64,000 nt of DNA from the NCBI GenBank assembly GCA_963825245.1, contig CAWGSJ010000013.1:226537-290536 (forward strand). Direction: 5' to 3'. This stretch comes from an uncultured Acidobacteriota bacterium. Its GTDB lineage: Bacteria; Acidobacteriota; Vicinamibacteria; Vicinamibacterales; CAVVIG01. The number at the start of each line of letters is the position of its first letter. Position 1 is the stretch's first letter. The notes below the pieces were generated by a model. That model was not told where the DNA came from and did no database searches. It worked only from the letters and a program-made list of their open reading frames with translations. A program made the position numbers and the translations under genes. Positions 3,252 through 63,647 of the stretch are shown in pieces.

Positions 3252-3710
3252 ATGCCGGTGACCATCGCGATGTCGCGCGCAAGCGCATCGCCCTCATCGC
3301 ACACGACAACCGCAAGGACGACCTGCTCGACTGGGCGCGCTACAACCGCGGGACGCTGAGCGGCCACGAGCTCTACGCCACCGGGACCACCGGCGTGCGC
3401 CTCGCGACCGAGCTGCACCTGCCGGTGATCACGTTTCTGAGCGGTCCGCTCGGCGGCGATCAGCAGGTCGGCGCCGCGATCGCGGAAGGGCGACTCGACT
3501 TCGTGATCTTCTTCTGGGATCCCGCTCGAGCCGCACCCGCACGACGTCGACGTCAAGGCGTTGCTCCGCATCGCCGTGGTCTACAACGTGCCGATCGCGT
3601 GCAATCGCGCGACAGCCGACTTCCTGCTGTCGTCGCCGTTGATGGAGCGCAGCTACGAACGGCGCCTCGTGGAACGGCCGGACGTGGTGTCCGGCATGCC
3701 GATCGGTTAG
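3252..3710 (+). CDS. mgsA: Methylglyoxal synthase (about 2 frameshifts in this assembly)
   Basis: [22 protein letters not shown] ... LYATGTTG ... [29 protein letters not shown] matches the MgsA catalytic region; C-terminal part ([34 protein letters not shown]) is in another frame after a C-homopolymer near 3527. Confidence 0.8.
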
Positions 3711-3712
3711 GT

Positions 3713-4110
3713 TCAGGACGTCTTCTTGAGCGGCTCGAGCAGGATGAACCAGCTCTCGCAGTCGGTTCGCGAACCGCCGCCGAGCGTCACGGTGAAGGCG
3801 AGGTTCAGCGACGCCACCTCCCACCGCTGCGTCGCGCGCGTCCCCTGGAGGATGACGCGGTACGGCTTCAGGAGGTTGTCGGCCGAGTCGTGATCGCGAT
3901 GCGCGTCCTGCACGCCTGGAAAGACGGCGAACTCACGGCGCGGCCCAGATGGACCTCGAACTGTCCGACGCCGTTGACGACGTGATCGTAGACCCGCTCG
4001 CCGTAGCGGCCGGTCGCCGGTTCCTGGCACGACTGCCAGTTGCCTTCCAGGATGTTCTGCAGCTGGCTCGACGTCGAGCTGGAAGCGCGATTCCGGCGTC
4101 TGGGCGGACG
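3713..4110 (-). CDS. Hypothetical protein (frameshifted; family not recognised)
   Basis: Protein-like sequence split over two minus-strand frames (...QLQNILEGNWQSCQEPATGRYGERVYDHVVNGVGQFEVHLGRA / EFAVFPGVQDAHRDHDSADNLLKPYRVILQGTRATQRWEVASLNLAFTVTLGGG...); no start codon found in the N-terminal frame. Confidence 0.35.
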
Positions 4111-4178
4111 CTCTCGAACGCGGCTACCCCAGCAGCCGACAGAGGCCGATCACGAAACTGATGGATGGCCGCACGGGT

Positions 4179-4186
4179 ATGACGGC
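4179..4186 (-). promoter_or_regulatory. PHO-box-like half-site GCCGTCAT (minus orientation), upstream of the 3713-4110 gene
   Basis: ttctGCCGTCATAC on the minus strand; 11/12 identical to the copy upstream of the GT2 gene. Confidence 0.3.
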
Positions 4187-4378
4187 AGAATAACCCGGCT
4201 CGGGCCCGGTGTAACCCACATTTAACAGCTTCGATACGGAAGCGAAACGTCCGCCGGATACTGTCGACTGTAGAGCGCCACGACGGAGGTCACGGACAGT
4301 GGCGACAGCGACGCCCGGCATCCGGGAGTGATCGCCTCGCCGACACAGCTTCCGTGCCCTCCGCCGTGGCGCTCGTTC

Positions 4379-5070
4379 CATATGCCCAGGCACCGTGTTC
4401 TCATCGTCGAGGACGAGCACGACATCGCCGGACTGATCAAGCACACGCTCGAGCGTACCGGCGAGGCCGAGGCGCACATCGTCGGCACGGGTGACGATGC
4501 GCTGAAGGCGGTCGCGGCGCGCCGCCCGACCTGATGATCCTCGACCTCAACCTGCCGGTGTTGAGCGGCCTCGAGGTCTGCCGCATCCTGCGCGGACGCC
4601 CCGAGGGACGGCACCTGCCGATCATCATGCTGACGGCGCGCACCAGCGAGAACGACCGCGTCAGCGGCCTGGATCTCGGGGCGGACGATTACGTCACCAA
4701 GCCCTTCAGCCTGCGGGAACTGACGTCGCGCGTCCGCGCCGTGCTGCGACGCAGCGGCCGCCCCGACGAAGCGGCCGCCGATCAATTACCGCGGCGATCG
4801 CCTGACCGCCGATTTCGACGCCGTCGCCGTCGCCGTCGACGGCGATCAGATACGGCTCACGCGCCGCGAGTTCGAGCTGCTCCGCTACCTCGTCATGAAC
4901 AAGAACCGGGTCGTGTCACGCGACCGGCTGCTCGAGCGGGTCTGGGGTTACGATCGGCAGGTGGAAACGCGATCCGTTGACGTGCACGTCGGCCGCCTGC
5001 GGAGCAAGCTCGGCACGGCGGGCCGGCAGATCGAGACCGTCGTCGGCCTCGGCTATCGTTTCATCGACTG
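4379..5070 (+). CDS. OmpR/PhoB-family response regulator (REC plus winged-helix domains); 2 frameshifts
   Basis: [15 protein letters not shown] ... [17 protein letters not shown] ... [44 protein letters not shown] closely parallels E. coli PhoB; winged-helix C-terminus ([31 protein letters not shown] ... GLGYRFID) is in another frame. Confidence 0.8.
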
Positions 5071-12346: not shown

Positions 12347-13622
12347 ATGGCTCTGTCGAAATCACGCGCATCGTCGATTGATCGACGACGTTTTCTGCAG
12401 TACACGTGGCAGGGCGTCGGGACGAGCCTGTCGCTGGCGCTCGTCTCCGGCCGCGAGCTGTTTGCGGCCCCCTCGCTCGGAAGGAATCCGTTCACGCTGG
12501 GCGTCGCCTCGGGGGATCCCTCCTCGGAGGGGATCGTGCTCTGGACGCGGCTCGCGCCCGAGCCAGCCAATCCGGCAAGCCTCGGCCGTCGGTCGATCCC
12601 CGTTGGCTGGCGCGTCGCCACCGACAGCCACATGCGTCACCTCGTTGCCCGCGGCCATGCCGTCGCCTCTCCCGAGCTCGCACATTCAGTGCACGTGGAA
12701 GTGGATGGCCTGGAGCCCGAGCGCGACTACTTCTATCAGTTCGACCTGCGCGACGAGGAGAGCCGCATCGGGCACTTCCGCACCACGCCTGCGCCGCACG
12801 AGCATGTCCGGCAGCTGCAGTTCGCCTTCGCCACCTGCCAGGACTGGCCGAGCGGCTTTTACACGGCATACCGGGACATGCTGCAGAACGATCTCGACGT
12901 GGTGCTCCACCTGGGCGACTACACCTACGAGTACGCGATCGGCGGCATGACCGGGCGTGGGATGCCGGTCCCGAGCGGATTCGGGCGGGACCGTGGACCT
13001 CGAAACCTACCGCCTGCGGCGAGGCGCTGCGATGCGCCGAAGCGTTGACGGGCAGTTATACGATGCTCGGAGAGGACCAGGAACGCTGGCTCGCGCGCGG
13101 TTTTCGTCAATCGCTCGCGCGCTGGAACTTCGTCGCGCAGCAGCTCCTGATCGCCGAGCTGGAGCACACGCTGCCCGGTACCCTGACGAGTGGTACTGGA
13201 ACGACGCATGGGATGGCTACCCGCTCGCGCGCAAGCGGATGCTGACCGATGTGGTCCAGAGCCGCGTCAGCAACCCGGTCTTCCTGACCGGCGACTGGCA
13301 CTCGACGTTCGCGAACGAGTTGAAGCTGGACTTCAAGAATCAGGCCTCACCAGCCGTGGCGACCGAATTCGTGACGCCGGCCATCACCACCGGCGGCGAC
13401 GGCACACCCTACGGTCCGTACTACTCGCCGATGATCCCGTTCAACCCGCACATCAAGTGCTACGAAGGCGACAAGCGCGGGTACTTCAAGGCGACCGTCA
13501 CGCCTCGAGAGACCCGGCTCGATCTCCGGTTCGTCACGAGCGTGGAAGATCCGAATGGAGTGGGTTACACGGAGCGATCGTTCGTCGTCGAAGACGGCAG
13601 GCCTGTCATCGAGATGTCCTGA
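12347..13622 (+). CDS. phoD: Alkaline phosphatase D family (PhoD), Tat-secreted; about 3 frameshifts
   Basis: Twin-arginine signal (RRRFLQYTWQGVGTSLSLALVSG); LGVASGDPS, HLGDYTYEY and C-terminal LTGDWHSTFANEL ... FVTPAITTGGDG are PhoD signatures; the pieces lie in 3 frames. Confidence 0.75.
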
Positions 13623-19946: not shown

Positions 19947-19986
19947 TCTGCCGGGGAATTTATCACACGTGGGGGAGGATCGATCT

Positions 19987-20083
19987 GCGTTCTCCGTTCT
20001 ACGTTCTACGTTCTGCGTTCGAAAGCAGAACGATGAACGATGAACGAAGAACGCAGAACGCAGAACGCAGAACGCAGAACGAC
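19987..20083. repeat. Long hairpin of tandem heptamers, (NCGTTCT)x5 - gaaagc - (AGAACGN)x8, between the GDPD gene and pntAB
   Basis: Left arm gcgttctccgttctacgttctacgttctgcgttc and right arm agaacgatgaacgatgaacgaagaacgcagaacgcagaacgcagaacgcagaacg are imperfect reverse complements. Confidence 0.6.
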
Positions 20084-20134
20084 GAAGAGAGCGCTGTAGG
20101 CGACCCGTTCAGGGTCGCCAGCATGCCATCTTCG

Positions 20135-21411
20135 CTACTTCAGACCCATGCAGTTGGCGTAGTACGTCACCGGCGCGGCCCAGTCCGAGAACACGCCGAG
20201 GATGCCGACCTGGCGCGCCAGCACGTCGATCACCTTGTAGAGATCGCCCTCGCGCTTGATGGCCGGGTCGATCGTCTGGTAGTAGAACCCGTTGTTGCCG
20301 TCGGCCAGGATGCCCGAGCGCTCGAGCGTCCAGGTGATGAGGTCGAGGCCGGCCGCCTTGGCGTTGCGCGCGGCCTGCGAGGGCACGATGCGGTTCTGGC
20401 CGTCGAGCGCCAGCAGCGCGAAGGTCGGCGGCGCCCAGATGTTGATCCCCATCAGCTTGTAGCCGGCGAGGTCGGCGAAGGTCGGCAGCTCCGCGACCAC
20501 GTTGGCGTCGTCCAGATACACCGCCTGGCGTGCCGAACGCCGGCTCCCGTTTGATCCAGTAGAGGACGTCGTTGATGTTGAACGACTGCGGGAAGACACG
20601 GCGCGGCGAGACGCCGGCCGCCTTGTACTCGTCGATCATCTTCTGCGCGTACTGCTCCTGCGTGAACCCGTTGAACGGCATCGTCACGCTCGGCACTCTT
20701 CAGCTCTGGCGTCATGCTTCGACGCCGAGCTTCTTGAAGAGCTCGATGCTCTCGGCGTGCGTCAGCAGCTCGCCGCTGGTCGGGCCGGAGTACAGGTCGG
20801 TCCGGAAGTTCGGCGTGCCGCCGAGGAACTGCTGCGGCGTCAAGCGCGCGCGGGTCGAACGCGTCCATCTTGCCGCGCAGGGTCTTGAACTCGGCCAGCG
20901 TGATATCGCTCGTCCGGCACTCGGCCGATGCCGGCTGAAGCAGCGCGCCGCCGGGGGCGATGACGGCCGGCGTGAACGGCTTCGTGCACTTGGCCGGCGA
21001 GCGGCGTCACCAGGATGTTCGTGGTGGTGTGCAGATCGTTCTGCGCGTGGCGGCAGACCAGCTGCGAGATCCTTGGTGAAGGTCACGTCGCATTCGAGGA
21101 TGCCCGCGCCCATGCCGCGCGCCCGCTTCGTACGATTCGCGCGTGTGCTCGGGAAACTGCAGCGCCGCGCCGCGGTGGCCGATTGAGAAATTGCTTTTCG
21201 AGAACGGGCCGGCCGAGCAGCTCTGCAGCTGACGCTTCAGCCAGCTGTCCTCCATGTCGTTGACGAGAAAGAACGGCCGCGGGCCGAGCTGGATGGCCTC
21301 CGACCGATGCCGATGGTCGCGGTCGTCGTCATCGGCGGCCGCGGCGGCGGTCATGCTCGCCGCTCCGGCAAGCGTCGACGCAAGGAGAAGTGAGAGGATT
21401 CGCTGTCGCAT
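20135..21411 (-). CDS. Secreted GlpQ-like glycerophosphodiester phosphodiesterase; at least 3 frameshifts
   Basis: GAAGGAG RBS and signal peptide ([26 protein letters not shown]); [11 protein letters not shown] catalytic motif; GlpQ-like middle and C-terminal pieces ([24 protein letters not shown] ... ITWTLERSG ... [18 protein letters not shown]) in other frames. Confidence 0.75.
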
Positions 21412-25134: not shown

Positions 25135-26619
25135 ATGACCTCTCCCACCACGCTTAAGTCGACCGAGCTCGACGGCGAATTCACCCGTGGCCTCGGCCTC
25201 TTCGACGCGACGGCCGTGGTCGTCGGCTCGATGATCGGTTCGGGTATTTTCATTGTCTCCGCCGACATGGCGCGAAACCTGGGCAGCCCCGGTTGGCTGC
25301 TCGTGGCGTGGCTGATCACCGGCGTGCTCACGGTCACCGGCGCGCTGGCTTACGGGGAGCTGGCCGCGATGATGCCGCGCGCTGGCGGGCAGTACGTCTA
25401 CCTGCGCGAGGCGTACTCGCCGTTGTGGGGCTTCCTCTACGGGTGGACGCTGTTCCTCGTGATCCAGACCGGGACGATCGCCGCCGTGGCCGTCGCGTTC
25501 GCGCGCTTTCTCGGTGTACTCGTCCCGGCCATCTCCGAGCAGCGCTACCTGGTTGCGCCGATCCACCTGTCGTCGGGCTACGCGCTGTCGCTGTCCACGG
25601 CGCAAGTCGTCGGCATCCTGCTGGTTGCGCTTTTGACGTGGACGAACACGCGCGGCCTCGCGTACGGCAAGGTCATTCAGAACATCTTTACGACAGCCAA
25701 GACCGGATCGCTCATCGGCCTCATCCTGGCCGCGATGCTGTTCGGCTGGAACGAGGCGGCCGTCTCGAACAACTTCGGCAACCTGTGGACGGTGCGCCCG
25801 GGCCTTGACGGTACTCTGCCGCTCGCCGCGGCCGGCTCTTTCGGCCTGCTGGTTGCGCTGTGCGTGTCGCAGACCGGGTCGCTCTTTTCGGCCGATGCGT
25901 GGAACAACATCACGTTCACCGCCGGCGAAGTGCGGGAGCCGCGCCGGACGATCCCGATTTCGCTCGTGCTCGGCACGGGCACGGTGATCGGGTTGTACCT
26001 GCTGGCGAACGTCGGCTACCTGGTGACGCTCACCTTCGAGCAGATTCAGCGCGCGCCTGGGGATCGGGTCGCGACGGCGACGGTGGACGCGATCGTTCCG
26101 GGCGCGGGGGTGACGATCATGGCGATGGCGATCATGATCTCGACCTTCGGCTGCAACAACGGCCTGATCCTGGCGGGGGCGCGCGCGTATTACGCGATGG
26201 CGCGGGACGGGTTGTTCTTCCGGCCGGCCGGCGTCCTGAACGGCGCCAAGGTTCCGGCGTTCGCGCTGCTGCTGCAGGGCATCTGGGCGATGTTCCTGAT
26301 TCTGCCGCGTACCTACGACGCGTCGAGCGGCGCCTACGGCAACCTGTACAGCAACCTGCTCGACTACGTGATTTCGGCGGCGCTCATCTTCTATATCCTG
26401 ACCGTCGCCGCGGTGTTCCGCCTGCGGCGGACACGCCCCGACGTCCCGCGCCCGTACCGCGCCCTCGGCTACCCGATCCTGCCTGCCCTCTACATCGCCG
26501 GCGCGACCACCATCCTCACGATCCTGTTCATCTACCGCTCGAGCACGACCTGGCCGGGGCTCGTCATCGTGATCCTGGGACTTCCTGCGTACTACGCCTG
26601 GAGTTCGAAAAAGCTCTAA
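25135..26619 (+). CDS. APC-family amino acid permease
   Basis: Intact 494-aa ORF with 12 TM helices and the GSGIF ... AYGELAAMMPRAGGQYVY signature. Confidence 0.8.
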   Translation: MTSPTTLKSTELDGEFTRGLGLFDATAVVVGSMIGSGIFIVSADMARNLGSPGWLLVAWLITGVLTVTGALAYGELAAMMPRAGGQYVYLREAYSPLWGFLYGWTLFLVIQTGTIAAVAVAFARFLGVLVPAISEQRYLVAPIHLSSGYALSLSTAQVVGILLVALLTWTNTRGLAYGKVIQNIFTTAKTGSLIGLILAAMLFGWNEAAVSNNFGNLWTVRPGLDGTLPLAAAGSFGLLVALCVSQTGSLFSADAWNNITFTAGEVREPRRTIPISLVLGTGTVIGLYLLANVGYLVTLTFEQIQRAPGDRVATATVDAIVPGAGVTIMAMAIMISTFGCNNGLILAGARAYYAMARDGLFFRPAGVLNGAKVPAFALLLQGIWAMFLILPRTYDASSGAYGNLYSNLLDYVISAALIFYILTVAAVFRLRRTRPDVPRPYRALGYPILPALYIAGATTILTILFIYRSSTTWPGLVIVILGLPAYYAWSSKKL

Positions 26620-26651
26620 CACGGCTGCGACCAGCGCCGCGTACGCGGCGG

Positions 26652-26727
26652 CCTGACGAAGAACACACCGAAAACGCAAGTCTCAGGAACCGCGCCGGCT
26701 TGCGATTTTCGGTGTGTTCTTCGTCAG
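26652..26727. terminator. 28-bp near-perfect hairpin (cctgacgaagaacacaccgaaaacgcaag / cttgcgattttcggtgtgttcttcgtcag) between convergent genes
   Basis: Arms are reverse complements with one indel; 18-nt loop; starts 33 nt after the permease stop. Confidence 0.5.
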
Positions 26728-26762
26728 ACCGCGGCCGGTTCCACCGGCCGCGCTGGTCACAG

Positions 26763-26846
26763 CACAGACACGAACGGACACGTACGGTTCGCAGCCGTCG
26801 TGTCGTCCGGGTCCATCGTGTCCGTGTTGAAGCTTTTCGTGACGCA
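26763..26846. mobile_element. Partial copy of the MITE-like element found at 58802-58960
   Basis: 26826-26846 gtgtccgtgttgaagcttttc is the reverse complement of the 58802 TIR (gaaaagcttcaacacggacacga); cacgaacggacacg is also shared. Confidence 0.4.
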
Positions 26847-29980: not shown

Positions 29981-30065
29981 AAAATGCAACCACGAAGACG
30001 CGAAGACGCGAAGATGATCTTTGGCGTGTTTTCTTCGAGTCTTCGAGCCTTCGTGGTTGCATTTT
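29981..30065. repeat. About 35-bp-stem hairpin; arms contain tandem octamers (CGAAGACG)x3 and (CTTCGNGN)x3
   Basis: aaaatgcaaccacgaagacgcgaagacgcgaagatga pairs with tcttcgagtcttcgagccttcgtggttgcatttt; lies between the DUF4159-like gene stop and the nupC start. Confidence 0.6.
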
Positions 30066-43786: not shown

Positions 43787-45682
43787 GCTCCACCACCCGC
43801 TCCGGCGGCAGGCGGAAGAACGTCGTCGCGCGCACCGCGTTGCGGGCCATCAGCACGAACAACTGCTCGCGCCACAGCGCCATGCCCGGCGCGTTCGTCA
43901 CGATCAGCGTTTCGCGGCCGAGGAAATAGGTCACATCTCCCTCATCGAGCTCGAGCCCGTGTTTGGAGGCAAAGGCAAGGGCTTGCGGCACGTTCGGGTC
44001 CTGCATGAAGCCGTAGCTGACGACTACCTCGAACAGGCCCTGGCCAAGCGGACGGACCATGACCTGATCCTTCGGCGCCACATAGGGAACGGGCTTCGTG
44101 GTGACCATCAACGTCACGACGTGTTCGTGCAGAACCTTGTTGTAGCGAAGATTGTGGGCGAGCGCCGGCGGCGTGCCCTTTCCCTGCGCCGTCATGAACA
44201 CCGCGGTGCCCGGAACACGCGCCGGATGCGTGGTCTCGACCGTCCTGAGAAAGGTGTCGACCGGCACTGCCCGCGCCGTGAGGCGTGCCGCGACCAGCTG
44301 ACGTCCGGTCTTCCAGGTCGTCATCAACGTGAACAGCCCCGCGCCGATGACCAGCGGCAGCCATCCCCCGTGCGTGATCTTGAGGGCATTGGCGCCGAAG
44401 AACGCCAGGTCGATCGTCAGAAAGACGCCGGTCACCGCGTAGGCCACTGCCGGCGGCCACTTCCACCGTTCGATGGCGATGACGAACAGCAGCACCGCGG
44501 TGATCACCATCGTCAGCGTCACGGCGATGCCGTAGGCGGCGGCGAGCGCGGTCGACGAGCCGAACCCGATGACGATCAGGATGGTGCTGATCATCAGCGC
44601 CCAGTTGATCTGCGGCACGTAGACCTGACCGATCTCATCGTGGGAGGTGTGGTCGATGTCGAGGCGCGGGCAGTAGCCGAGTTGAATCGCCTGCTGGGTC
44701 AGCGAGAACGCGCCGGAGATGAGCGCCTGCGACGCGATGATCGCGGCGGCCGTCGCCAGGCCGACGAGCGGCAGCAGCGCCCAGTCCGGCGCGAGCAGGA
44801 AGAACGGCTGTTCGGCAGCGGTCGGATTGCGCAGCAGAAGCGCGCCCTGGCCGAAGTAGTTCAGCAGCAGCGCCGGCAGCACCAGGCTGAACCATGCCAC
44901 GCGGATCGGGAGCTTGCCGAAATGGCCCATGTCCGCATAAAGCGCCTCGCCGCCGGTCACGACCAGGAACACGGCGCCGAGCACGGCGAAGCCATGCCAG
45001 CCGTGCTCCACGAAGAACGACACGGCGTGGCGAGGGTCGATGGCCGTCGAGCACGACCGGATTCTGAACGAGCGACGCAATCCCCAGCGTCGCGATGACG
45101 ATGAACCAGACGACCATGATCGGCCCGAACAGGCGGCCGACGCGGTGCGTGCCATGCCGCTGGATCGCGAACACCGCCGACGAGAATCACGACCGTGACC
45201 GGCACGACGTACGGATCGAAGAACGGCGTCGCGACCTTCAGGCCCTCGACGGCGCCCAGCACGGTAATCGCGGGCGTGATCATCCCATCGCCGTACAGCA
45301 GTGCGGCGCCGAAGATGCCCATCAGCACCAGCACCGGCCACCGGACGCGGGTGCCGTTGTTCTGCGGCAGCAGCGCGGTCAGCGCGAGGATGCCGCCCTC
45401 GCCCTGGTTGTCGGCGCGCATGACGATCGCGATGTACTTGACCGAGATGACCAGCAGCAGCGAGTAGATGATCAGCGACAGCACGCCGAGCACGTTGTCG
45501 TGAGTCGCCGGCACCGAATGCGAGCCGAAAAAGCACTCCCGCATCGCGTACAGCGGACTGGTGCCGATGTCGCCGTAGACGACGCCAATCGCCGTCAGAG
45601 TAAGGGGAAGGAGCTTGCGCGGGCCGACGCCGGTCGTCGCCAGAATGTCTCCAATCGCCGGGTTGGATCAGGTCCGCACTGA
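43764..45682 (-). CDS. kup: KUP/HAK/KT potassium uptake transporter (multiple frameshifts; start approximate)
   Basis: [23 protein letters not shown] ... [18 protein letters not shown] ... and C-terminal [13 protein letters not shown]... match Kup across 3 frames. Confidence 0.8.
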
Positions 45683-47617: not shown

Positions 47618-47674
47618 GATCGTCCGCCTGAAGGCGGACACTACAATCGTCCGCCTGAAGGCGGACGCTACGAT
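47618..47674. repeat. Two tandem copies of a 29-30-nt unit, each a REP-like hairpin GTCCGCC-TGAA-GGCGGAC followed by (G)CTAC
   Basis: gatcGTCCGCCtgaaGGCGGACactac / aatcGTCCGCCtgaaGGCGGACgctacgatc; no spacers, so not a CRISPR array. Confidence 0.7.
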
Positions 47675-47774
47675 CGCGGCCGAATTCGCCCCCGGGCGCG
47701 AAATACGCCCTCTGGGTCCCCCGCGCGCCCTGTAACAGGCGCTTAGGCTTGTCGTAACTGCAATGGTAACAGAC

Positions 47775-50698: not shown

Positions 50699-50785
50699 AA
50701 GTCGGAGGCTGGAGACTGCGGCCTGGGGGCTGGACTCCCCACCCTCGAGTCTCCAGACCCCAGTCTCCAGCCCCCAGACGCTCAT
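50699..50785. repeat. Complex inverted/direct repeats of CTGGAGAC / GTCTCCAG with a CCAGCCCCCAG run, downstream of phoU
   Basis: ggaggCTGGAGACtg ... gggggCTGGACtcc ... gaGTCTCCAGaccccaGTCTCCAGcccccag; the motif CCAGCCCCCAG recurs at 54985-55021. Confidence 0.45.
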
Positions 50786-50980: not shown

Positions 50981-52323
50981 ACTGAAAGCCCCTGAGACTT
51001 CCAACTTCATACCTCAGACTTCTATGAGCGACTCGCTGACCGTCATCGACAACCGGACCGGGAAGAAGTACGAGCTGCCGATTCAGGACGGCACGATCCG
51101 GGCCATGGATCTCCGGCAGATCAAGGCCGGGGCCGGACGACTTCGGGCTGATGACGTACGACCCGGCGTTCATGAACACGGCGAACTGCCGCAGCTCCAT
51201 CACCTACATCGACGGCGACAAGGGCATCCTGCTCTATCGCGGCTATCCCGATCGAGGAGCTCGCGGAGCACAGCGACTACCTCGAGACCGCGTACCTGCA
51301 TCGTCTTCGGCGAGCTGCCGACCTCGTCGCAGCTCCAGGCGTGGACGCGCGAGATCACCCTGCACACGATGCTGCACGAGAACGTGAAGACGTTCATGCA
51401 GGGCTTCCAGTACGACGCCCACCCGATGGGCATCTTCCTGAGCACGGTCGGCGCGCTGTCGACGGTCAATCGCGACGCGAAGTTCATCTTCGACAAGGCG
51501 TCCCGCCTGCGCCAGATGCAGCGGCTGATCGCCAAGGTGCCGAGCATCGCCGCCTACGCCTACCGCCACAGCATCGGCCGGCCCTACATCTACCCCGACA
51601 ACGATCTGAGCTTCACCGGCAACTTCCTGAACATGCTGTTCAGCATGCCGGCCGAGAAGTACCACCCGAACCCGGTGCTGGCGCGCGCGCTCGACGTGCT
51701 GTTCATCCTCCACGCCGATCACGAACAGAACTGCAGCACCAGCACGATGCGCAACATCGGCAGCTCGCACGTCGATCCGTACTCGGCGCTGGCCGGGGCC
51801 GCCGCGGCGCTGTGGGGCCCGCTGCACGGCGGCGCGAACGAAGCGGTGCTGCGGATGCTGAACGAGATCGGGTCGGTGTCGCAGGGTGCCGGACTTCATC
51901 AAGCGGGTGAAGTCGGGCGAGGGCAAGGACCGGCTGATGGGGTTCGGCCACCGCGTCTACAAGTCGTACGACCCGCGCGCGAAGGTCATCAAGAAGATCG
52001 CCGACCTCGTGTTCACCGTCACCGGCAAGAACCCGCTGCTCGACATCGCGCTCGAGCTCGAGCGCATCGCGCTCGAGGACGAGTACTTCGTCAGCCGCAA
52101 GCTGTACCCGAACGTCGACTTCTACTCCGGCCTCATCTACCAGGCGATGGGCTTCCCGGTCGAGATGTTCCCGGTCCTCTTCGCCATCCCGCGGACCGCG
52201 GGCTGGATTGCGCAGTGGGAGGAGATGCTGCTCGATCCCGAGCAGAAGATCGCCCGCCCGCGGCAGATCTACACCGGCGCCGCCCGCGCGGGCATACGTG
52301 CCGCGAGAGCAGCGCGGCAATGA
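50973..52323 (+). CDS. gltA: Citrate synthase (about 4 frameshifts)
   Basis: [50 protein letters not shown] and [19 protein letters not shown] are collinear with E. coli GltA over 4 frames. Confidence 0.85.
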
Positions 52324-52341: not shown

Positions 52342-53221
52342 ATGTCGCACGCGATTGACCCGATGCTGGCGACCTCTGCTCGCGCTCGCGCTGCAGGCGG
52401 CCGCGCCGCGCCGCGTTCGACTCGAGCCGCGCCTGGGAGCACCTGCGGCAGCTCGTCGCGCTCGGTCCGCGGCCGGCGGGCTCGCCGGCGATCGAGCAGG
52501 CGCGCGGCTACATCAAGGCGCAGCTCGCCGCCGCCGGCGTATCGGTCGTCGAACAGGCATGGGAGGACCAGACGCCGGCCGGGCCGATCCAGATGGTCAA
52601 CCTGATCGCGACCATCCCGGGCGCATCGAAGAACCGCCTGATCATCGGCGGGCACTACGACACGAAGCGCTTCCGCGAGTTCCGCTTCGTCGGCGCGAAC
52701 GACGGCGGGTCGAGCGCGGCGTTCCTCATCGAGCTCGCGCGCGTCCTGAAGGCGCGCAAGAACGCGCTGACGATCGAGCTGCTCTTCCTCGACGGCGAGG
52801 AGGCCGTCGTCGAGTGGACCGGCACCGACAACACCTACGGCAGCCGCCACTACGTCGCGGCCGCGCGGCAGGACGGGTCGCTGGCGACGCGAAGGCGTTC
52901 ATCCTGGTCGACATGATTGGCGACCGCGACCTGCAGCTGACGCGCGAGACGCAACTCGACGCCGTGGCTCGACGGCATCATCAGGGGCGCGGCCACGCGC
53001 AGAAGCTCGGCACCTACTTCGCCGGTCCGCCACTCGCGCTCGAAGACGATCACCTGCCGTTCCTCGCGGCCGGCGTGCCGTCGGTCGACCTCATCGACTT
53101 CGAGTTCCCGGCCTGGCACACCGCCGACGACACGCTCGACGCCGTCAGCGCGCGCAGCCTGCAGATCGTCGGCGACGTGCTGCTCGCCGCGCTGCCGCAG
53201 ATTGAATCCAAACTCCGGTAG
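52342..53221 (+). CDS. M28-family peptidase (about 3 frameshifts)
   Basis: LIIGGHYDTK ... FVGANDGGSSAAFLIELARVL ... LLFLDGEE ... FILVDMIGDRDLQ ... DDHLPFLAAGVPSVDLIDF are M28 zinc-ligand motifs. Confidence 0.7.
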
Positions 53222-53283
53222 GCCCGACCTTTAGGTCGGGCGCACGCCGGCCCAGCACACGCCCGAGCTAAAGCTCGGGCCTA
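53222..53283. repeat. Two REP-like hairpins (GCCCGACC-TTTA-GGTCGGGC and GCCCGAGC-TAAA-GCTCGGGC plus CTAC) between convergent genes
   Basis: First hairpin abuts the TAG of the + gene; the CTA of the second's CTAC tail is the stop codon of the minus-strand gene. Confidence 0.65.
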
Positions 53284-53982
53284 CCGTCCCACCGCCGTGA
53301 GCAGCACGATCAGCGCCTTGTCGCCCTGCAGCCGCGATGTGCCGACGACGACCGTTTCGCCGACGTCCATGTTGAACGTCGTGTCGATGATGCGGCCGGG
53401 ATGCTTCACGATGCGCACCGTGCCGTTACCGGCCCCGGTGCGAAAGCCGCGGCCCGCGACGAACGGGAATGCCTGCCTGGGGTCGCGCAGGTTGAAGTTG
53501 ATCTGCACCTCGCTGTCCGACCGCGCCGAGGTCCGCAGCTCGAGCTCGTACTCGCGGTTCTCGGGGCCGCGAATCAGCGACGTCGACCGGGGCGACCCGA
53601 GAATCCAGCGCGCGTCGATCAACTCGTAGCTCTTATAGGGCAGGAACTGGCTCATGTCGGCGAGCGCCTTGCTCGCGGCCGGGGGCAGATCCCGCGTCGG
53701 GGCTCCGCCCTGGAGATCGCCGACCGCCAGGATCACGCTGAACCCGTGGTTCGCGCTCTTCTCCTCGCGGAACCGCTGCGTCTCCGCTTCGACCTCCTTG
53801 ATCCTGGCAATCGCCTGCTCGAGCTCGCGCTGCTTCAATTCGACCACGCGGTGCGACTGCTGGAGCAGCACCCTGGCCCGAGCGGAGTCGAGGGCCCGGA
53901 CGGCCGGCTCGAAATCCTGCGCGAGCGCCGGCGCCGCCGACGACAGGGCGCAGGCCACGACCGCCGCTAACGGTTTCTTCAT
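53281..53982 (-). CDS. Secreted hypothetical protein (coiled-coil N-terminus, beta-rich C-terminus)
   Basis: Signal peptide MKKPLAAVVACALSSAAPALA; third gene of an ECF sigma / anti-sigma module. Confidence 0.5.
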   Translation of the reverse strand: MKKPLAAVVACALSSAAPALAQDFEPAVRALDSARARVLLQQSHRVVELKQRELEQAIARIKEVEAETQRFREEKSANHGFSVILAVGDLQGGAPTRDLPPAASKALADMSQFLPYKSYELIDARWILGSPRSTSLIRGPENREYELELRTSARSDSEVQINFNLRDPRQAFPFVAGRGFRTGAGNGTVRIVKHPGRIIDTTFNMDVGETVVVGTSRLQGDKALIVLLTAVGR

Positions 53983-56404: not shown

Positions 56405-57895
56405 ATGACCAGAATGATTGCCGCCGTCTTCGTCAGCCTCACTCGTCCTCGCCGGCCATGTCGCGTCGGCCCAGCCGGTGCCGATGCCGTGCTGCCGCCG
56501 CTGCCCGTACCGCCGGAGACGTTCGTGCTGCCACCGGTTCCGCCGCTGCCGGTGCTGCCCGAGATGCCGACATTGCCGGAACTCCCACCGATGCCGACGG
56601 TGGGGCCGCTGCCTCCAATGCCGCCACTGGCGGCGTTGCCGCCGCTGCCGACCGTTCCATTCTTCGAGCTCGATAAGTTCTATGCGGACTTCCTTTACCA
56701 GCCGGCGCCGAAGCCCCAGCCCACGCCGCGGCCTCAACCCGCGCCACGGCCAGTGCGCGTCGACAGGGGACGCGATGCCGAGGGGACGTACGAAGATGCG
56801 CGTCAGCTGATCGATTCAGGCCGCTACGAACGGGCGCTCGAGGCGCTCGATCGAGTGGCGGCTGCGCCGAACAGCACGCGGGCAGACGCGGCGCTGTACT
56901 GGAAGGCCTACGCGCAGTGGAAGCTCGATCAGCGCGCCGACGCACTCGCGACGCTCGCGGACATGAGCAAGACGCGTTCCCGCAGAGCCGCTGGGCGAAG
57001 GACGCGCAGGCGCTCGACGTCGAGATCCGGCAGAGGTCCGGCACGATCGGTTTCGCCAGACGGCCAGTCCAGCGAGGAGCTGAAGCTGCTGGCGCTGCGG
57101 GGACTGATGAACAGCGATCCCGACCGGGCCATCCCGATGATCGAGCAGACTCCTGGCCGGCCCGAGCACGGTCCGCGTCAAGGAGAACGCCCTGTTCGTA
57201 CTGAGCCAGAGCCGCTCCGCGCGCGCACGCGACATCATCGCGGGAGCCGCCAAGGGCAGCCTCAATCCCGATCTGCAGCTGCGCGCGATCCGCTACCTCG
57301 GGGCGATCGGCGGTCGCGGAGAACCGCCAGGTGCTGGACGATGCGTATCGATCGACGACCGACCTGGCGGTAAAGCGCGCCATCATCCGCAGCTTCGGCG
57401 CGGCGGGTGATCGCCAGCGGCTGCTCGGCCTGGCAAAGTCCGAGAACGCGCCGGAGCTGCGCGGCGAAGCGGTCCGATCGCTCGGCGCGATGAACGCGAC
57501 CGCCGAGCTCGACGAGCTGTACCAGACCGAGACGTCGCGCGGAGGTCAAGAACCAGATCATTCGCGGCATGATGTCGAGCGGTAACGTCGGTTCGCTGAC
57601 GAAGCTCGCCACCTCGGAGAAGGACCCGGCGCTGCAGCGCACGGCGATCCGCAACCTCGGGGCGATGGGATCGGCCAAGACGAGCGACACGCTGCGATCG
57701 ATCTACACCAGCGACAGCAACACCGACGTCCGCATGGAAGTGATCGACGCGCTGATGATTCAGCAGAACGCGACCGTGCTCGTCGCGCTCGCCCGCGCCG
57801 AGAAGGACGCCGCGCTGAAGCGGCGCATCGTCGAGCGGTTGTCGATGATGAAGTCGAAGGAAGCCACGGACTACATGTTGGAATTACTGAAATGA
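56405..57895 (+). CDS. Proline-rich / TPR / HEAT-repeat protein (about 3 frameshifts)
   Basis: N-terminal signal-like segment, PPLP repeats, TPR-like helices, C-terminal HEAT/PBS-lyase repeats (ALQRTAIRNLGAMGS ... VRMEVIDAL...). Confidence 0.5.
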
Positions 57896-57950
57896 GGGTG
57901 CTGGGTGGATCCTGTAGGGTGCTCGGTGGATCCTGTAGGGTGCTGGGCGC
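57896..57950. repeat. Tandem 21-bp direct repeat, 2.6 copies of GGGTGCTGGGTGGATCCTGTA, each containing GGATCC
   Basis: Copies at 57896-57916 and 57917-57937 differ by 1 nt, with a partial third copy; begins directly after the upstream TGA. Confidence 0.7.
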
Positions 57951-57959
57951 GGGTGCGCC

Positions 57960-58794
57960 ATCGCGATCGTGCTGGCTGCTGACGCGGCGGCGGCACAAAC
58001 GCTCCAGCAGCGGGTCGAGGCGGTCGCGGCCAAGGGCGGCGTTGCGCTGGGTCGAGTACCGCGTGCCGATGGTGGGCGGATCGCGGCGGATGTGCTGCTT
58101 CGATTCGGCCGCGTCGCGCGGCGCCGACTGCTGTGGCCGCTGCCGGCTCGAGGGGCGCGACGGGATTGTGCTGAACAACAGCAATCAACCCGAGCCCGCC
58201 GCGGCGCGGATTGTCGTCGAGCCACCGTCCGAAATGCGCGTCTTCGCGCGGATCGAGAACCGGTCGGTCACGCGGCTGCGGATCTTCTCGCTCGATTGCG
58301 ACGTCGACGCCGACGGCGTGGCCGTGACGACGCTGTCCGGGATCAGCGCGGACGAGAGCGTCGCCTGGCTCGCCGCGCTCATTCGGTCGGCTGACGATAC
58401 GACGCCCACGCTCAACACCGTGCAGATGCCCGCTCTTTCAGCGCTCGCCCTGCACCCCGGAGACGCGGCCGAGAAAATCCTGATCACGCTCGCGCGGAGC
58501 GATCAGCGGCCGCGCATGCGCAGCCAGGCACTCTTCTGGCTCTCGCAGCGCGCCGGCGACGAAGCCCTCAAGGCGATTGGCAGCGCCGTGAGCGACGATC
58601 CCGAGATCGAGGTCAAGCGGCGCGCAGTGTTCGCCCTGAGCCAGCTGCCCCGCAGCGAGGGCGTACCGATGCTCATCGATCTCGCTCGCAACCACCGCCT
58701 GCCCGAAGTCCGCCGGCAAGCCATGTTCTGGCTCGGTCAGTCGAGGGATCCCCGCGCCGTCGATTTCTTCGAGCAGATCCTTCTCGCCAAGTAA
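57960..58794 (+). CDS. HEAT-repeat (PBS-lyase-like) protein (frameshifted N-terminus; start approximate)
   Basis: Repeated RSQALFWLSQ / RRAVFALSQ / RRQAMFWLGQ HEAT-like motifs; the N-terminal signal-like segment is in another frame. Confidence 0.55.
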
Positions 58795-58801
58795 ATACTT
58801 C

Positions 58802-58960
58802 CACGAAAAGCTTCAACACGGACACGACGGACACGAACGGATCACGGACTGTTCCGGACCGTACCGTGTCTGTTCTGCGACCCGCGCCGCGCAGCGGCGC
58901 TCGGGCCGGCTTCGCCGGCCCGCTGGTCGCAGCAGTTCGTGTCCGTGTTTTGAGCTTTTC
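58802..58960. mobile_element. MITE-like non-coding element (~159 bp) with 26-bp terminal inverted repeats and internal hairpins
   Basis: Left end cacgaaaagcttcaacacggacacga and right end (reverse complement) gaaaagctcaaaacacggacacgaac match at 23 of 26 positions; no ORF; lies between convergent genes; a partial copy is at 26763-26846. Confidence 0.55.
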
Positions 58961-58994
58961 TTCTTTTTTCGTGTTCGTGCTTCCGTGCTGGTCG

Positions 58995-60227
58995 TCAGGA
59001 CTGCTTCGAGGTGGCTTCATCGAGGATTTTCTGAATCTGCTCGGCGGTCAGGGTCCGCTTCGAAGCCTTGGCGGCGCTGAAGATCCTGTCGACGATGTCG
59101 TCGGTCGCGGCCAAGCCGCGGCTCTCCAGCCAGTAGACGACGTTCGACCTGCCGGACATCGGGCCGACGTCGATCTGCTGCGCGCGGCCGACGAGCGTGG
59201 CGGGAACGGACGCGTAGACCGCGTCCATCAGCTCGCGGTCACCCTTTCTGAACGCTTTCACCACCGCCGCCGCGTGCACGCCGGTGGCGGTGCGGAACGC
59301 GTCGTATCCGATCACTGGATAGTTCGGCGGAATCGGCACGTCGCACACACGCGAGACGGCCTCGCAGTAGCCGGGCAGCGTCGACAGGTCGCGTTCGATG
59401 GCGCCGCTCATTACCAGGTTGACGAGCAGCAGATCGATCGCCGTGTTGCCGCAGCGCTCGCCGATGCCGAGCGCGGTGCCGTGCAGCCGCGTCGCGCCCG
59501 CCTCCCAGGCCGCGAGCGCGTTGGCGATGCCGAACCCGCGGTCGCGGTGGCCGTGCCAGTCGATGCCGGCTTCCACGCCGAGCTCGGCCACCAGGTTTCG
59601 GACGAAATGGACCACGGCCCGCGCGCCGGCGGGCGTCGCGTGGCCGACCGTGTCGGCGATGCAGAGTCGTGACGCCCCGGCGCGCAGCGCCGTCGTGAAC
59701 AGCACGCGCAGAGAAGCCGGGTCGGCGCGCGTCGTGTCCTCGGTGACGTACATCACCCTCAGGCCTTGCTTTACCGCGAACCCGATGGCCTCTTCGGTGG
59801 TCTTCTGCAGGAACTCGATCGTCCAGCCCTCGGCGTACTGGCGGATCGGGCTCGAGCCGATGAAGGCACAGCACTCGATCGGGACGCCGGTCCGCTGGAC
59901 AGCCTCGGCAATCGGCCGGATATCCGAGATGACCGTGCGCGCGGCGCAGTTGGCGGTGATCGTCAGCCGCCGATCGCCGATCGATCGGGCCAGGCGCTCG
60001 ACGTCGGCGGCCACGTGCGCGCCCGCGCCGGGAAGGCCGATGTTCGCGGTGTCGATCCCGAGGACGTCCATCCGCTCGAGCAGATCGAGCTTCTCCTCGA
60101 TCGCCGGGGTGCGCACCGACGGCGACTGCAATCCATCACGCAGCGTCTCGTCGTCGAGCATCACCGCCGGCCCGCGGACGGCGCTTTCAGCGTTCCAATC
60201 GTGAATGAGCGGATGGAGGTGCGACAT
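58995..60227 (-). CDS. 2-isopropylmalate synthase / homocitrate synthase family (HMGL-like) enzyme
   Basis: Intact 410-aa ORF; LRDGLQS, MYVTEDTTRADP and DTVGHATP ... HGHRDRGFGIANALAA are DRE-TIM metallolyase motifs. Confidence 0.75.
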   Translation of the reverse strand: MSHLHPLIHDWNAESAVRGPAVMLDDETLRDGLQSPSVRTPAIEEKLDLLERMDVLGIDTANIGLPGAGAHVAADVERLARSIGDRRLTITANCAARTVISDIRPIAEAVQRTGVPIECCAFIGSSPIRQYAEGWTIEFLQKTTEEAIGFAVKQGLRVMYVTEDTTRADPASLRVLFTTALRAGASRLCIADTVGHATPAGARAVVHFVRNLVAELGVEAGIDWHGHRDRGFGIANALAAWEAGATRLHGTALGIGERCGNTAIDLLLVNLVMSGAIERDLSTLPGYCEAVSRVCDVPIPPNYPVIGYDAFRTATGVHAAAVVKAFRKGDRELMDAVYASVPATLVGRAQQIDVGPMSGRSNVVYWLESRGLAATDDIVDRIFSAAKASKRTLTAEQIQKILDEATSKQS

Positions 60228-62673: not shown

Positions 62674-63606
62674 GCGTCCTACTTCGTCCCGGTCTGCCGG
62701 GCGGCATCGGCCACCAGGCTGACCGCGTTGTCGAACAGCGTGAAGTAGTCGGTCACGGTCTTTCGTGCCGCCGACCGACGGCGGCAGCACGACGACCCGG
62801 CCGCCGGTCTGGCGCGCGATGGCGTTCGGGGTCTTCAGGTCGAAGTACGGCTCGACGAGGATCAGCTTCACGTTCTGGCGGTTCATCTCGTTGACCAGAT
62901 CGAGCGTGTGCTGCGGCGTCGGCGGGATTCCCGGCCGCGGCTCGACGAAGCCGATCACGTCGAGCCCGAAGCGGTCGGCGAAGTTGGAATAGGACCGGTG
63001 GTAGGTGACGACCTTCAGCCCCTTGAACGGCGCCAGCGCGGCCTGCCAGCGCTGCCGGGCCTCGTCGATGCCGCCGCGAGAAATCGGCGAGACGCTGATC
63101 GAAGTACGCCTTGTCGTTCGGACGCAGCTCCGACAGCTTGCCGGCGATGGCGCGCGCGATCACCTTGCCGTTGTCCGGATCCAGCCAGTAGTGCGGGTTG
63201 CCGAGCGGGTGCACGTCGCCCATCGCCCGCGTGATCTGCCCCTGCGGGATGTCGAGAATGCGCGCCTGGAGCGACGCGTCCAGGTACGCCGGGCGCGCCC
63301 GGCTGAATCCTGCGCGTTGCGGCTCTGCTGCACGAGCGGCGGCAGCCAGCCGACTTCGAGCTCGCGGCCGACCACCACCAGGAGGTCGGCGCGCTGCAAG
63401 CGCAGGATGAAGCTGGGCTTCGCTTCGACGAAATGCGGGTCCTGGTAGCCGCGCGCGATCGACTCGACCGCCGCGCGGTCGCCGGCGACTTCGCGCGCGA
63501 TGGCGGCCAGATCCTCGGTCGTGGTGACGACGTTGAGCTTCCCTTGCGCGTGGACCGGTGCGGTCAGCACCGACTGCAGCGCCAGCAAAGCGATTAACTT
63601 CTTCAT
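62670..63606 (-). CDS. znuA: Metal-binding periplasmic lipoprotein / SBP (TroA-ZnuA family); about 3 frameshifts
   Basis: Signal peptide MKKLIALLALQSVLTAPVHA; cluster 9 SBP motifs (KLNVVTTTEDLAAIAREV ... GDVHPLGNPHYWLDP ... KLILVEPYFD) across 3 frames. Confidence 0.65.
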
Positions 63607-63647
63607 GAAATCCTCTTTCACTTCCTTCACCGACTACCGACTACCGA

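Follow-up and report, generated by a model that had tools for sequence, protein, structure and literature searches.

Two intergenic inverted-repeat elements of an uncultured Acidobacteriota bacterium are probably ORF-less members of a GxxExxY cassette family

The window analyzed here, a 64,000-nucleotide stretch of DNA from an uncultured Acidobacteriota bacterium, carries two hairpin-forming elements (copies A and B). We think it probable that both are ORF-less, non-autonomous members of an inverted-repeat-bounded GxxExxY cassette family of the Acidobacteriota, most likely of the Vicinamibacterales, and, as part of the same account and with the same degree of confidence, that its members come and go in the short spacers just past stop codons, in the manner of a MITE. 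Our data directly support the existence of the family, its architecture, its hairpin-preserving evolution, the empty orthologous sites, the cassettes that share its arms, and the deletion intermediates.

Copy A (58802-58960) is a non-coding segment of 159 bp without a plausible ORF and forms a hairpin over its whole length. The original prediction, made from the letters of the window, had described a segment of this size with inverted ends and internal GC hairpins between convergent HEAT-repeat and LeuA-like genes, and each of these points held. The ends lie at 58802-58827 (cacgaaaagcttcaacacggacacga) and 58935-58960 (gttcgtgtccgtgttttgagcttttc), the internal GC hairpins are present in a fold of about -105 kcal/mol on either strand (z = -7.8 and -8.7), and the neighbors are a HEAT-repeat gene (57892-58794, + strand) and a convergent HMGL/LeuA-family gene (58995-60227, - strand). 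The arms share 8 and 13 identical bases with a 1-nt indel between them, and the termini are inverted copies of GAAAAGCT(N2-3)AACACGGACACGA. The parts of copy A and the spacer beside it are as follows.

58802-58847, + strand: long (5') arm, cacgAAAAGCTTCAACACGGACACGA plus two more ACGGACACGA-type units
58848-58874, + strand: loop and return strand of hairpin 1, pairing with the inner long arm in the MFE and centroid folds
58875-58932, + strand: inner module, a stem ctgcgacc/ggtcgcag closing two GC hairpins, gccgcgcagcggc and ggccggcttcgccggcc
58935-58960, + strand: short (3') arm, the reverse complement of GAAAAGCTCAAAACACGGACACGAAC
58961-58994, no strand: T-rich, (TTCGTG)n spacer beside copy A, which aligns to the 32 nt that separate the genes in L024, where the site is empty

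Within the left arm, TRF reported a 9-nt period (ACGGACACGA x 2.9, at 58818-58846), and the arm HMM matches 58806-58847 with E = 2.6e-12. The window contains the 23-mer GAAAAGCTTCAACACGGACACGA both at 58805-58827 (+) and at 26816-26838 (-), a recurrence that was seen in 0 of 100 dinucleotide-preserving shuffles of the window, with 0 expected. On the + strand, the large hairpin is followed by the T-rich run at 58961-58994, which, judging from its alignment, is ancestral spacer and lies outside the inserted unit. A promoter and terminator consensus scan of 58300-59400 returned 0 sites, and the intrinsic terminator pattern of a short GC-rich stem-loop with a direct U-tract was likewise found at 0 sites in this interval.

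The second occurrence of the terminal sequence was originally taken for a partial copy; it is instead the long arm of a full element of 236 bp on the minus strand (copy B, 26606-26841), whose second arm lies at 26606-26624.

26796-26841, - strand: long (5') arm, its first 26 nt identical to those of copy A
26763-26795, - strand: loop and return strand of hairpin 1, from the fold
26625-26762, - strand: inner module, inverted with respect to that of copy A, from alignment and fold
26606-26624, - strand: short arm, cgAAAAAGCTCTAACACGG on the + strand, carrying the 3' end of the permease gene

Copy B also has no plausible ORF and is a hairpin throughout (z = -11.3), with the architecture of copy A plus one extra long hairpin, and the arm HMM matches it at 26837-26796 (E = 1.9e-10). 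The recurring sequence gtgtccgtgttgaagcttttc had been read correctly and placed 8 nt off, at 26826-26846 instead of 26818-26838; of the internal block thought to be shared, cacgaacgga is common to both copies and is then followed by cacg in copy B and tcacg in copy A. The short arm of copy B encodes the last codons and the TAA stop (26617-26619) of an amino-acid permease gene (25135-26619), the C terminus of which reads ...WSSKKL* in the window versus ...WSSRRN* in orthologues.

Both copies consist of an outer arm-arm helix, a hairpin 1 formed by the inner long-arm units and their return strand, and an inner module closed by (c/g)tgcgacc...ggtcgca(g/c). Inside this module are hairpins X (gccgc-loop-gcggc) and Y (ggccggc-loop-gccggcc), between which copy B has its extra hairpin of ~90 nt (arms 26645-26674 and 26706-26735). 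Outside copies A and B, neither this module nor any of its hairpins turned up in the window, and the module of copy A is homologous to those of four elements in other contigs (L007, L010, L009, and L017). Pairwise global alignment places the modules of copy A, L007, L010, L009a, and, marginally, L030i in one group and those of copy B and L017 in another; from one group to the other, alignment is better with the reverse complement than with the direct strand, which indicates that the module can sit either way round between the asymmetric arms. The long hairpin is an optional part: copy A and L007 lack it, and copy B, L009a, L010, L017, L030i, and L002 have it. The early suggestion of a BIME-like composite build is thus borne out in that the elements are mosaics with an inner module seen in either orientation.

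In seven modules, aligned after their orientation had been normalized, 92.7% of the cells form standard pairs, and 12 pairs have changed on both sides, the long hairpin accounting for 10 of these; none of 500 shuffles did as well, and slid partners paired in only 35-51% of cases. These alignments show that the hairpins of the family are maintained while their sequence changes. Changes that look compensatory can come from arm-to-arm conversion in palindromic DNA, without selection on RNA, and hairpin maintenance fits selection on RNA, selection on single-stranded DNA, or arm-to-arm conversion alike. A comparison of the MFE of both strands, intended to find the strand of function, gave no consistent preference among the members.

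Relatives of the two copies were found in related genomes and in soil metagenomes. Protein matches of the flanking genes point to Vicinamibacterales, which makes this the probable order of the host. An exact-pattern scan of species-representative genomes gave two matches, both in one uncultured Acidobacteriota MAG (L001 and L002), and L001 is syntenic with the HEAT/LeuA locus of the window, which it matches at ~82% nucleotide identity over 6.7 kb. The same kind of scan over soil metagenome contigs gave 17 loci, among them 10 true members (L003, L004, L007-L011, and L015-L017), and the arm HMM revealed one more copy in L009 and no additional one in the window. The remaining 7 of the 17 metagenome matches were discarded as chance or coding: in L013, L014, and L018 the matches to the arm pattern AAAAGCTTCAACACGGACACG are codons of ornithine carbamoyltransferase (FEKASTRTR motif), and L005, L006, L012, and L019 are without a second arm. 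Coding matches of the AAAAGCTTCAACACGGACACG type will be a source of false positives for any arm-only search.

Altogether the family is dispersed over at least eight distinct sites, with or without an ORF, the window copies included. All members are intergenic, begin 6-45 nt past a stop codon, and are found in both orientations, with convergent or tandem genes as neighbors. Their arms are inverted, 20-45 nt long, and built of ACACG(N)ACGG units, followed by the first hairpin and the three-hairpin module; ORF-less members measure ~155-300 bp, and arms in members other than the window copies reach 45 nt. About 60 kb of three related contigs (L021, L022, and L024) contained no copies, versus two in the 64-kb window, and per-genome copy number looks low, as far as these contigs and the two exact matches in the one related MAG can tell. 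A scan of viral contigs with the arm pattern gave 0 matches and hence no sign of a link to phages. As far as Rfam and the open-access literature that we searched go, the family is new, while its general kind (MITE-, IVS-, or BIME-like) is known.

Orthologous sites show that the elements are polymorphic in presence between relatives. At site B, permease orthologues with 84-94% protein identity are present in four contigs (L025, L026, L027, and L028), and in all four the next gene is a convergent SSF-family (sodium:solute symporter) transporter gene; the spacers between the two genes are 34, 24, 35, and 35 nt, respectively, versus 232 nt in the window. Even relatives with 92-94% protein identity have spacers of 24-35 nt without a hairpin. 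Site A is empty in L024, where 32 nt separate the LeuA orthologue (85% identity) from the HEAT gene. L024 and L025 come from the same 1.74-Mb contig, which is collinear with the window and in which both sites are empty. A further contig with a 95%-identical LeuA (L022) has a rearranged neighborhood and is without the element, and L001 keeps the arms around a decayed interior (z = -0.6). Such empty sites mean that the elements were gained or lost, as is predicted for a mobile, MITE-like element, and on this comparison copies A and B are lineage-specific acquisitions or else survivors of losses elsewhere.

A target-site duplication, which had been named as something to look for, is seen at one of the two sites at most. 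The sequence GAAG stands on either side of copy A and once in the empty site, and the window sequence from which the element and one GAAG had been removed aligned to the empty site of L024 with a score of 14.5 (shuffle control, 1.0 +/- 3.2; maximum of 12.5 in 1000), which makes GAAG a candidate 4-bp duplication at site A. No target-site duplication is recognizable at site B, where the genes on both sides have diverged in their C-terminal codons, so that neither a duplication nor an exact junction can be read.

The link to GxxExxY genes rests on cassettes that share the arms of the family. In L002 we found an arm, a 125-amino-acid ORF, a module of three hairpins built like that of the window copies, and another arm, and the ORF matches PF13366 (PDDEXK_3) at 3e-38 and TIGR04256 (GxxExxY) at 5e-39. 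Such a cassette, with arms of 40-45 nt enclosing a GxxExxY ORF and a three-hairpin module, is present in L002, L003, L004, and L020 and has a full length of about 600-640 bp. The two arms of the cassette have a complementarity of 95%, and their identity to the arm of copy A is 93%, the latter value being that of the long arm of copy A against the arm of L002. The D...E-V-K and G-x-x-E-x-x-Y motifs are intact in the GxxExxY protein of L020. At the Hexapep-epimerase locus that also holds the L002 cassette, L011 has two internal deletions of the ORF, and L015 has lost segments of the ORF together with the module, the arms being intact in both; these two contigs represent in-situ deletion intermediates, the classic way in which an autonomous unit becomes ORF-less. 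In all the loci that we retrieved, GxxExxY is the only ORF between arms of the family type, and tblastn found no GxxExxY ORF in the window.

Further GxxExxY genes, 65-66% identical, are found at the Hexapep-epimerase locus in L030 and L035. In L030 a complete ORF-less element is nested behind the GxxExxY ORF, and in L035 the ORF is directly followed by a tandem array (3420-4429) of four to five copies of 201-224 bp with 95% matches, the unit of which comprises the last ~30 nt of the GxxExxY ORF and an arm-type palindrome. Another GxxExxY gene lies between recJ and accA in L021 and L029, with arms that have diverged yet are mutually complementary. The cassettes that we examined thus occupy two conserved loci (Hexapep-epimerase and RecJ-AccA) in genomes at 65-95% protein identity, and this positional conservation makes them look like old residents rather than recent jumpers.

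The arm also seems to be connected to the reading frame. Among the 120 closest homologues of the L002 ORF (P0001-P0120), 89 have a called N terminus at least 10 residues upstream of the conserved core, and by eye these extensions are mostly KSSNTDTTDTNGHDG, TTEDTDTNGGHG, or a variant, corresponding to the arm translated always in the same frame. As no more than 31 of the 89 satisfied a strict regular expression, "mostly" is a judgment by eye and not an established count. An arm in frame at the N terminus suggests that the GxxExxY ORF starts in or before the arm, and transposase genes often begin inside an IS end. One search returned more than 5,000 close GxxExxY homologues. A sequence search of the PDB found no solved structure, the passages of open-access papers that name the family give no function for it, and the open-access literature that we searched holds no description of inverted-repeat-bounded GxxExxY cassettes, which may be described elsewhere.

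Inverted repeats around GxxExxY genes are also found in other phyla. A tblastn search of plasmid records gave eight GxxExxY genes, five of which are bracketed by inverted repeats just outside the ORF; these five (L031-L034 and L036) are on plasmid or chromid records.

Gemmatirosa: flanking inverted repeat of 25 nt, 100% complementary
Sphingomonas: 25 nt, 92% complementary, gene between fabD and fabG
Bacteroides: 30 nt, 90% complementary, gene fills the radA spacer
Bernardetia: 28 nt, 86% complementary
Treponema: 16 nt, 88% complementary

The repeats around these five genes are made of similar short units such as CACAGAGGA or CGCGAAGG, and the layout outside the Acidobacteria is about 470 bp with a terminal stem of 25-30 nt and one small ORF. 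The other three of the eight genes (Fusobacteria, Persicobacter, and Prevotella; L037-L039) have no flanking repeats. The five bracketed genes are wedged between housekeeping genes.

This layout resembles that of the intervening sequences (IVS) of 23S rRNA. The IVS of Coxiella burnetii is 428 nt long, has a 28-bp terminal stem and an S23p ORF, and is excised by RNase III, and the origin of IVSs is debated, with transposon-remnant and mobile-element hypotheses under discussion (PMC4990558). The full-length relatives of the window elements (L002 and L020) similarly have ~430-640 nt and a stem of at least ~28 bp around one small ORF of unassigned function, and in both systems the ORF decays while the stem is kept. 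In contrast, IVSs sit in helix 25 or 45 of 23S rRNA, whereas copies A and B lie between protein-coding genes; the Coxiella ORF encodes the four-helix-bundle protein S23p, whereas the ORF here is GxxExxY and the window copies keep the stem without it. RNase III processing, known for IVSs, would by analogy be expected here.

A second comparison is with free-standing homing-endonuclease genes, and a PD-(D/E)XK homing endonuclease exists in I-Ssp6803I. The GxxExxY gene is likewise small, of a nuclease fold, located between housekeeping genes (as between fabD and fabG in Sphingomonas), and patchily distributed. To our knowledge, homing-endonuclease genes are not normally located inside long inverted repeats and have no ORF-less hairpin derivatives; GxxExxY differs in both respects, and its nuclease activity is putative.

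Our results lead us to speculate that the elements are mobilized in trans, possibly by the GxxExxY PD-(D/E)XK nuclease acting on the arms or, as an alternative to the nuclease, by host recombination or replication at palindromes. A read-through transcript from either neighbor would fold into a long, near-perfect helix, and would do so from both strands, and this helix would probably serve as a barrier to transcription or to exonucleases as well as a substrate of RNase III. A symmetric barrier and RNase III site of this predicted kind would account for tolerance of the elements right after stop codons and between convergent genes, where an insertion would be nearly harmless. The nuclease link is weakened by the cassettes being old residents, by the low copy number, by a target duplication that is only a candidate, and by the putative nature of the GxxExxY activity.

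More tentatively, inverted-repeat-bounded GxxExxY genes could be widespread and so far undescribed compact selfish cassettes (~470-640 bp), a counterpart of IVSs in the spacers of protein genes, in which the nuclease moves or homes the cassette via its arms; the elements of the window, and perhaps other unit-armed palindromes, would be ORF-less derivatives of them. We regard this wider proposal as possible, if rather doubtful. If the nuclease link is true, an abundant uncharacterized family gains a testable role as the nuclease of a minimal inverted-repeat/ORF/inverted-repeat selfish cassette, and the question of the origin of rRNA intervening sequences gains a non-rRNA relative with visible insertion polymorphism. 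Should the GxxExxY link fail, a new family of repeats is left that is well documented but otherwise ordinary. In practical terms, the family is a marker of recent gain and loss in a soil lineage that is uncultured, and it accounts for long intergenic stretches of strong structure that one might take for RNA genes.

The least unlikely alternative is that of a classical MITE or REPIN moved by a conventional transposase (DDE or RAYT/Y1) encoded elsewhere, in which case GxxExxY would be a passenger or would have inserted secondarily into one copy. This reading would fit the terminal inverted repeats of the elements, their small size, their dispersal between genes, and the empty sites of relatives, and it would also fit an inner module that occurs in both orientations, like those of mosaic BIMEs, and GxxExxY cassettes that look positionally stable. 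At 159 and 236 bp, copies A and B are below the size of about 500 bp that bounds a MITE. The Correia/NEMIS elements of Neisseria are bacterial MITEs, and Correia elements duplicate TA. The window elements are like them in being non-coding and 100-300 bp long, with terminal inverted repeats of ~26 nt, an intergenic location, size variants, and presence or absence between strains, and by analogy they may also be co-transcribed with their neighbors and form long hairpins that RNase III can cut. They are unlike them in having no sequence similarity, no clear target-site duplication, an apparently low copy number, arms of short tandem units, and GxxExxY instead of a transposase between the arms.

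REP, BIME, REPIN, and ERIC (IRU) sequences are extragenic palindromes of Proteobacteria, and ERIC sequences have internal insertions at fixed positions. The REP type has palindromic units of 20-40 nt that bear a GTAG or CGTC tag, a high copy number, and an associated RAYT gene. Palindromes after stop codons, mosaic modules in alternative orientations, optional internal insertions at fixed positions, and hairpin-preserving evolution are common to these sequences and the window family, the units of which are, in contrast, larger and more branched than REPs, far fewer in copy number, and from a different phylum. The GTAG or CGTC tag typical of REPs (PMC3733652) is absent from the ends of the arms and modules.

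No transposase had been seen nearby, and a Pfam scan of about 55 window ORFs agreed, returning housekeeping families only and no recombinase; no RAYT gene and no Y1 or other transposase family was found among them, which, together with the missing tag and low copy number, sets the family apart from REP, REPIN, and BIME sequences. Moreover, the arm is in frame with GxxExxY across many homologues, and inverted repeats surround GxxExxY genes in unrelated phyla, which ties the arms to the GxxExxY gene and argues against a passenger relation. The first description of copy A as a candidate non-autonomous element or BIME-like repeat is thus supported in part. With GxxExxY, which is not a known transposase, as the only ORF found between the arms, a classical MITE is no more than a candidate reading, and we judge a conventional transposase elsewhere to be an unlikely explanation.

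We consider it quite improbable that the elements are non-mobile terminators or 3'-end hairpins that grew in place from (CACGAA)n/(TTCGTG)n and came to resemble each other through convergence or gene conversion. Intergenic palindromes whose arms consist of tandem units are indeed numerous in the window and its relatives (19980-20091, 29981-30065, and others), the empty site A already has CACGAA motifs, copy A is followed by a T-rich run, and both of its strands fold equally well. Against growth in place, copies A and B have an identical end of 26 nt, and a multi-part architecture recurs at eight or more unrelated loci, neither of which is expected from convergence; in addition, relatives at 92-94% protein identity have hairpin-free spacers of 24-35 nt at site B, and the simple consensus scan around copy A found no terminator. 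Structured non-coding RNA genes or cis-regulatory RNAs, acting in the transcript of one strand, would explain the very strong predicted structure (z down to -11) and the significant covariation of the modules, and are just as hard to believe in, given that no Rfam family reaches its gathering score, that both strands fold about equally and the favored strand varies among members, that the elements can point either way where the genes beside them are co-directional (L009a versus L009b and L007), that the inner module is inverted in some members, that no promoter-like site was found in the 58300-59400 scan, and that the element is missing from close relatives. None of these rivals explains the multi-part architecture, the empty sites, and the link to an ORF together.

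Several other structured or repetitive features were observed in the window and in related contigs. At the gathering threshold, the only Rfam match in the whole window is a c-di-AMP riboswitch away from the elements (RF00379, 47552-47759, - strand, 55.6 bits, E = 3.5e-10), and no rRNA was found; at permissive settings the best matches had E values of 0.036-4.9 and scores of 13.6-25.6 bits versus thresholds of 40-70. This riboswitch precedes ORFs of transporter type on the minus strand (fragments of an amino-acid permease and of a K+ transporter) and contains a tandem repeat of 27 nt x 2.1 (47619-47676). Partial Pfam matches, to the C terminus of citrate synthase (51886-52323), the N-terminal part of K_trans (44957-45544), the N terminus of PhoD (12347-13048), and the start of ZnuA (63160-63630), suggest frameshifts in these ORFs, owing either to pseudogenes or to indel errors of the assembly.

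An intergenic palindrome of 7-nt units at 19980-20091, in which (TCTACGT)x5 faces (AGAACGA)x8.6 with several pairing registers possible, follows a pntB-type gene and precedes a minus-strand ORF (20135-20599). Another, of ~85 nt and 8-nt units (AAAATGCAACCACGAAGACGCGAAGACGCGAAGA and its reverse complement), lies at 29981-30065 between nucleoside-transporter and DUF4159 genes and is possibly a simpler relative of the same element class. An 81-92% identical copy of it is present in an unrelated contig (L011, 1333-1411), and its orthologous spacer holds a different, (CACGAAAA)n palindrome in L027 (5822-5960) and none in L025. Strong intergenic inverted repeats with arms of 24-31 nt are also located at 50704-50775, 53216-53286, and 4273-4374, the last of which is 85% conserved in a collinear relative (L025, 1214-1318). 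Gene 3' ends in this lineage seem, from the contigs at hand, to be prone to the expansion of short units, with (GAACTGAG)x6 running across the stop codon at the LeuA end in L022 (2580-2630) and (GAA)n(GTA)n across that at the permease end in L026 (2840-2880).
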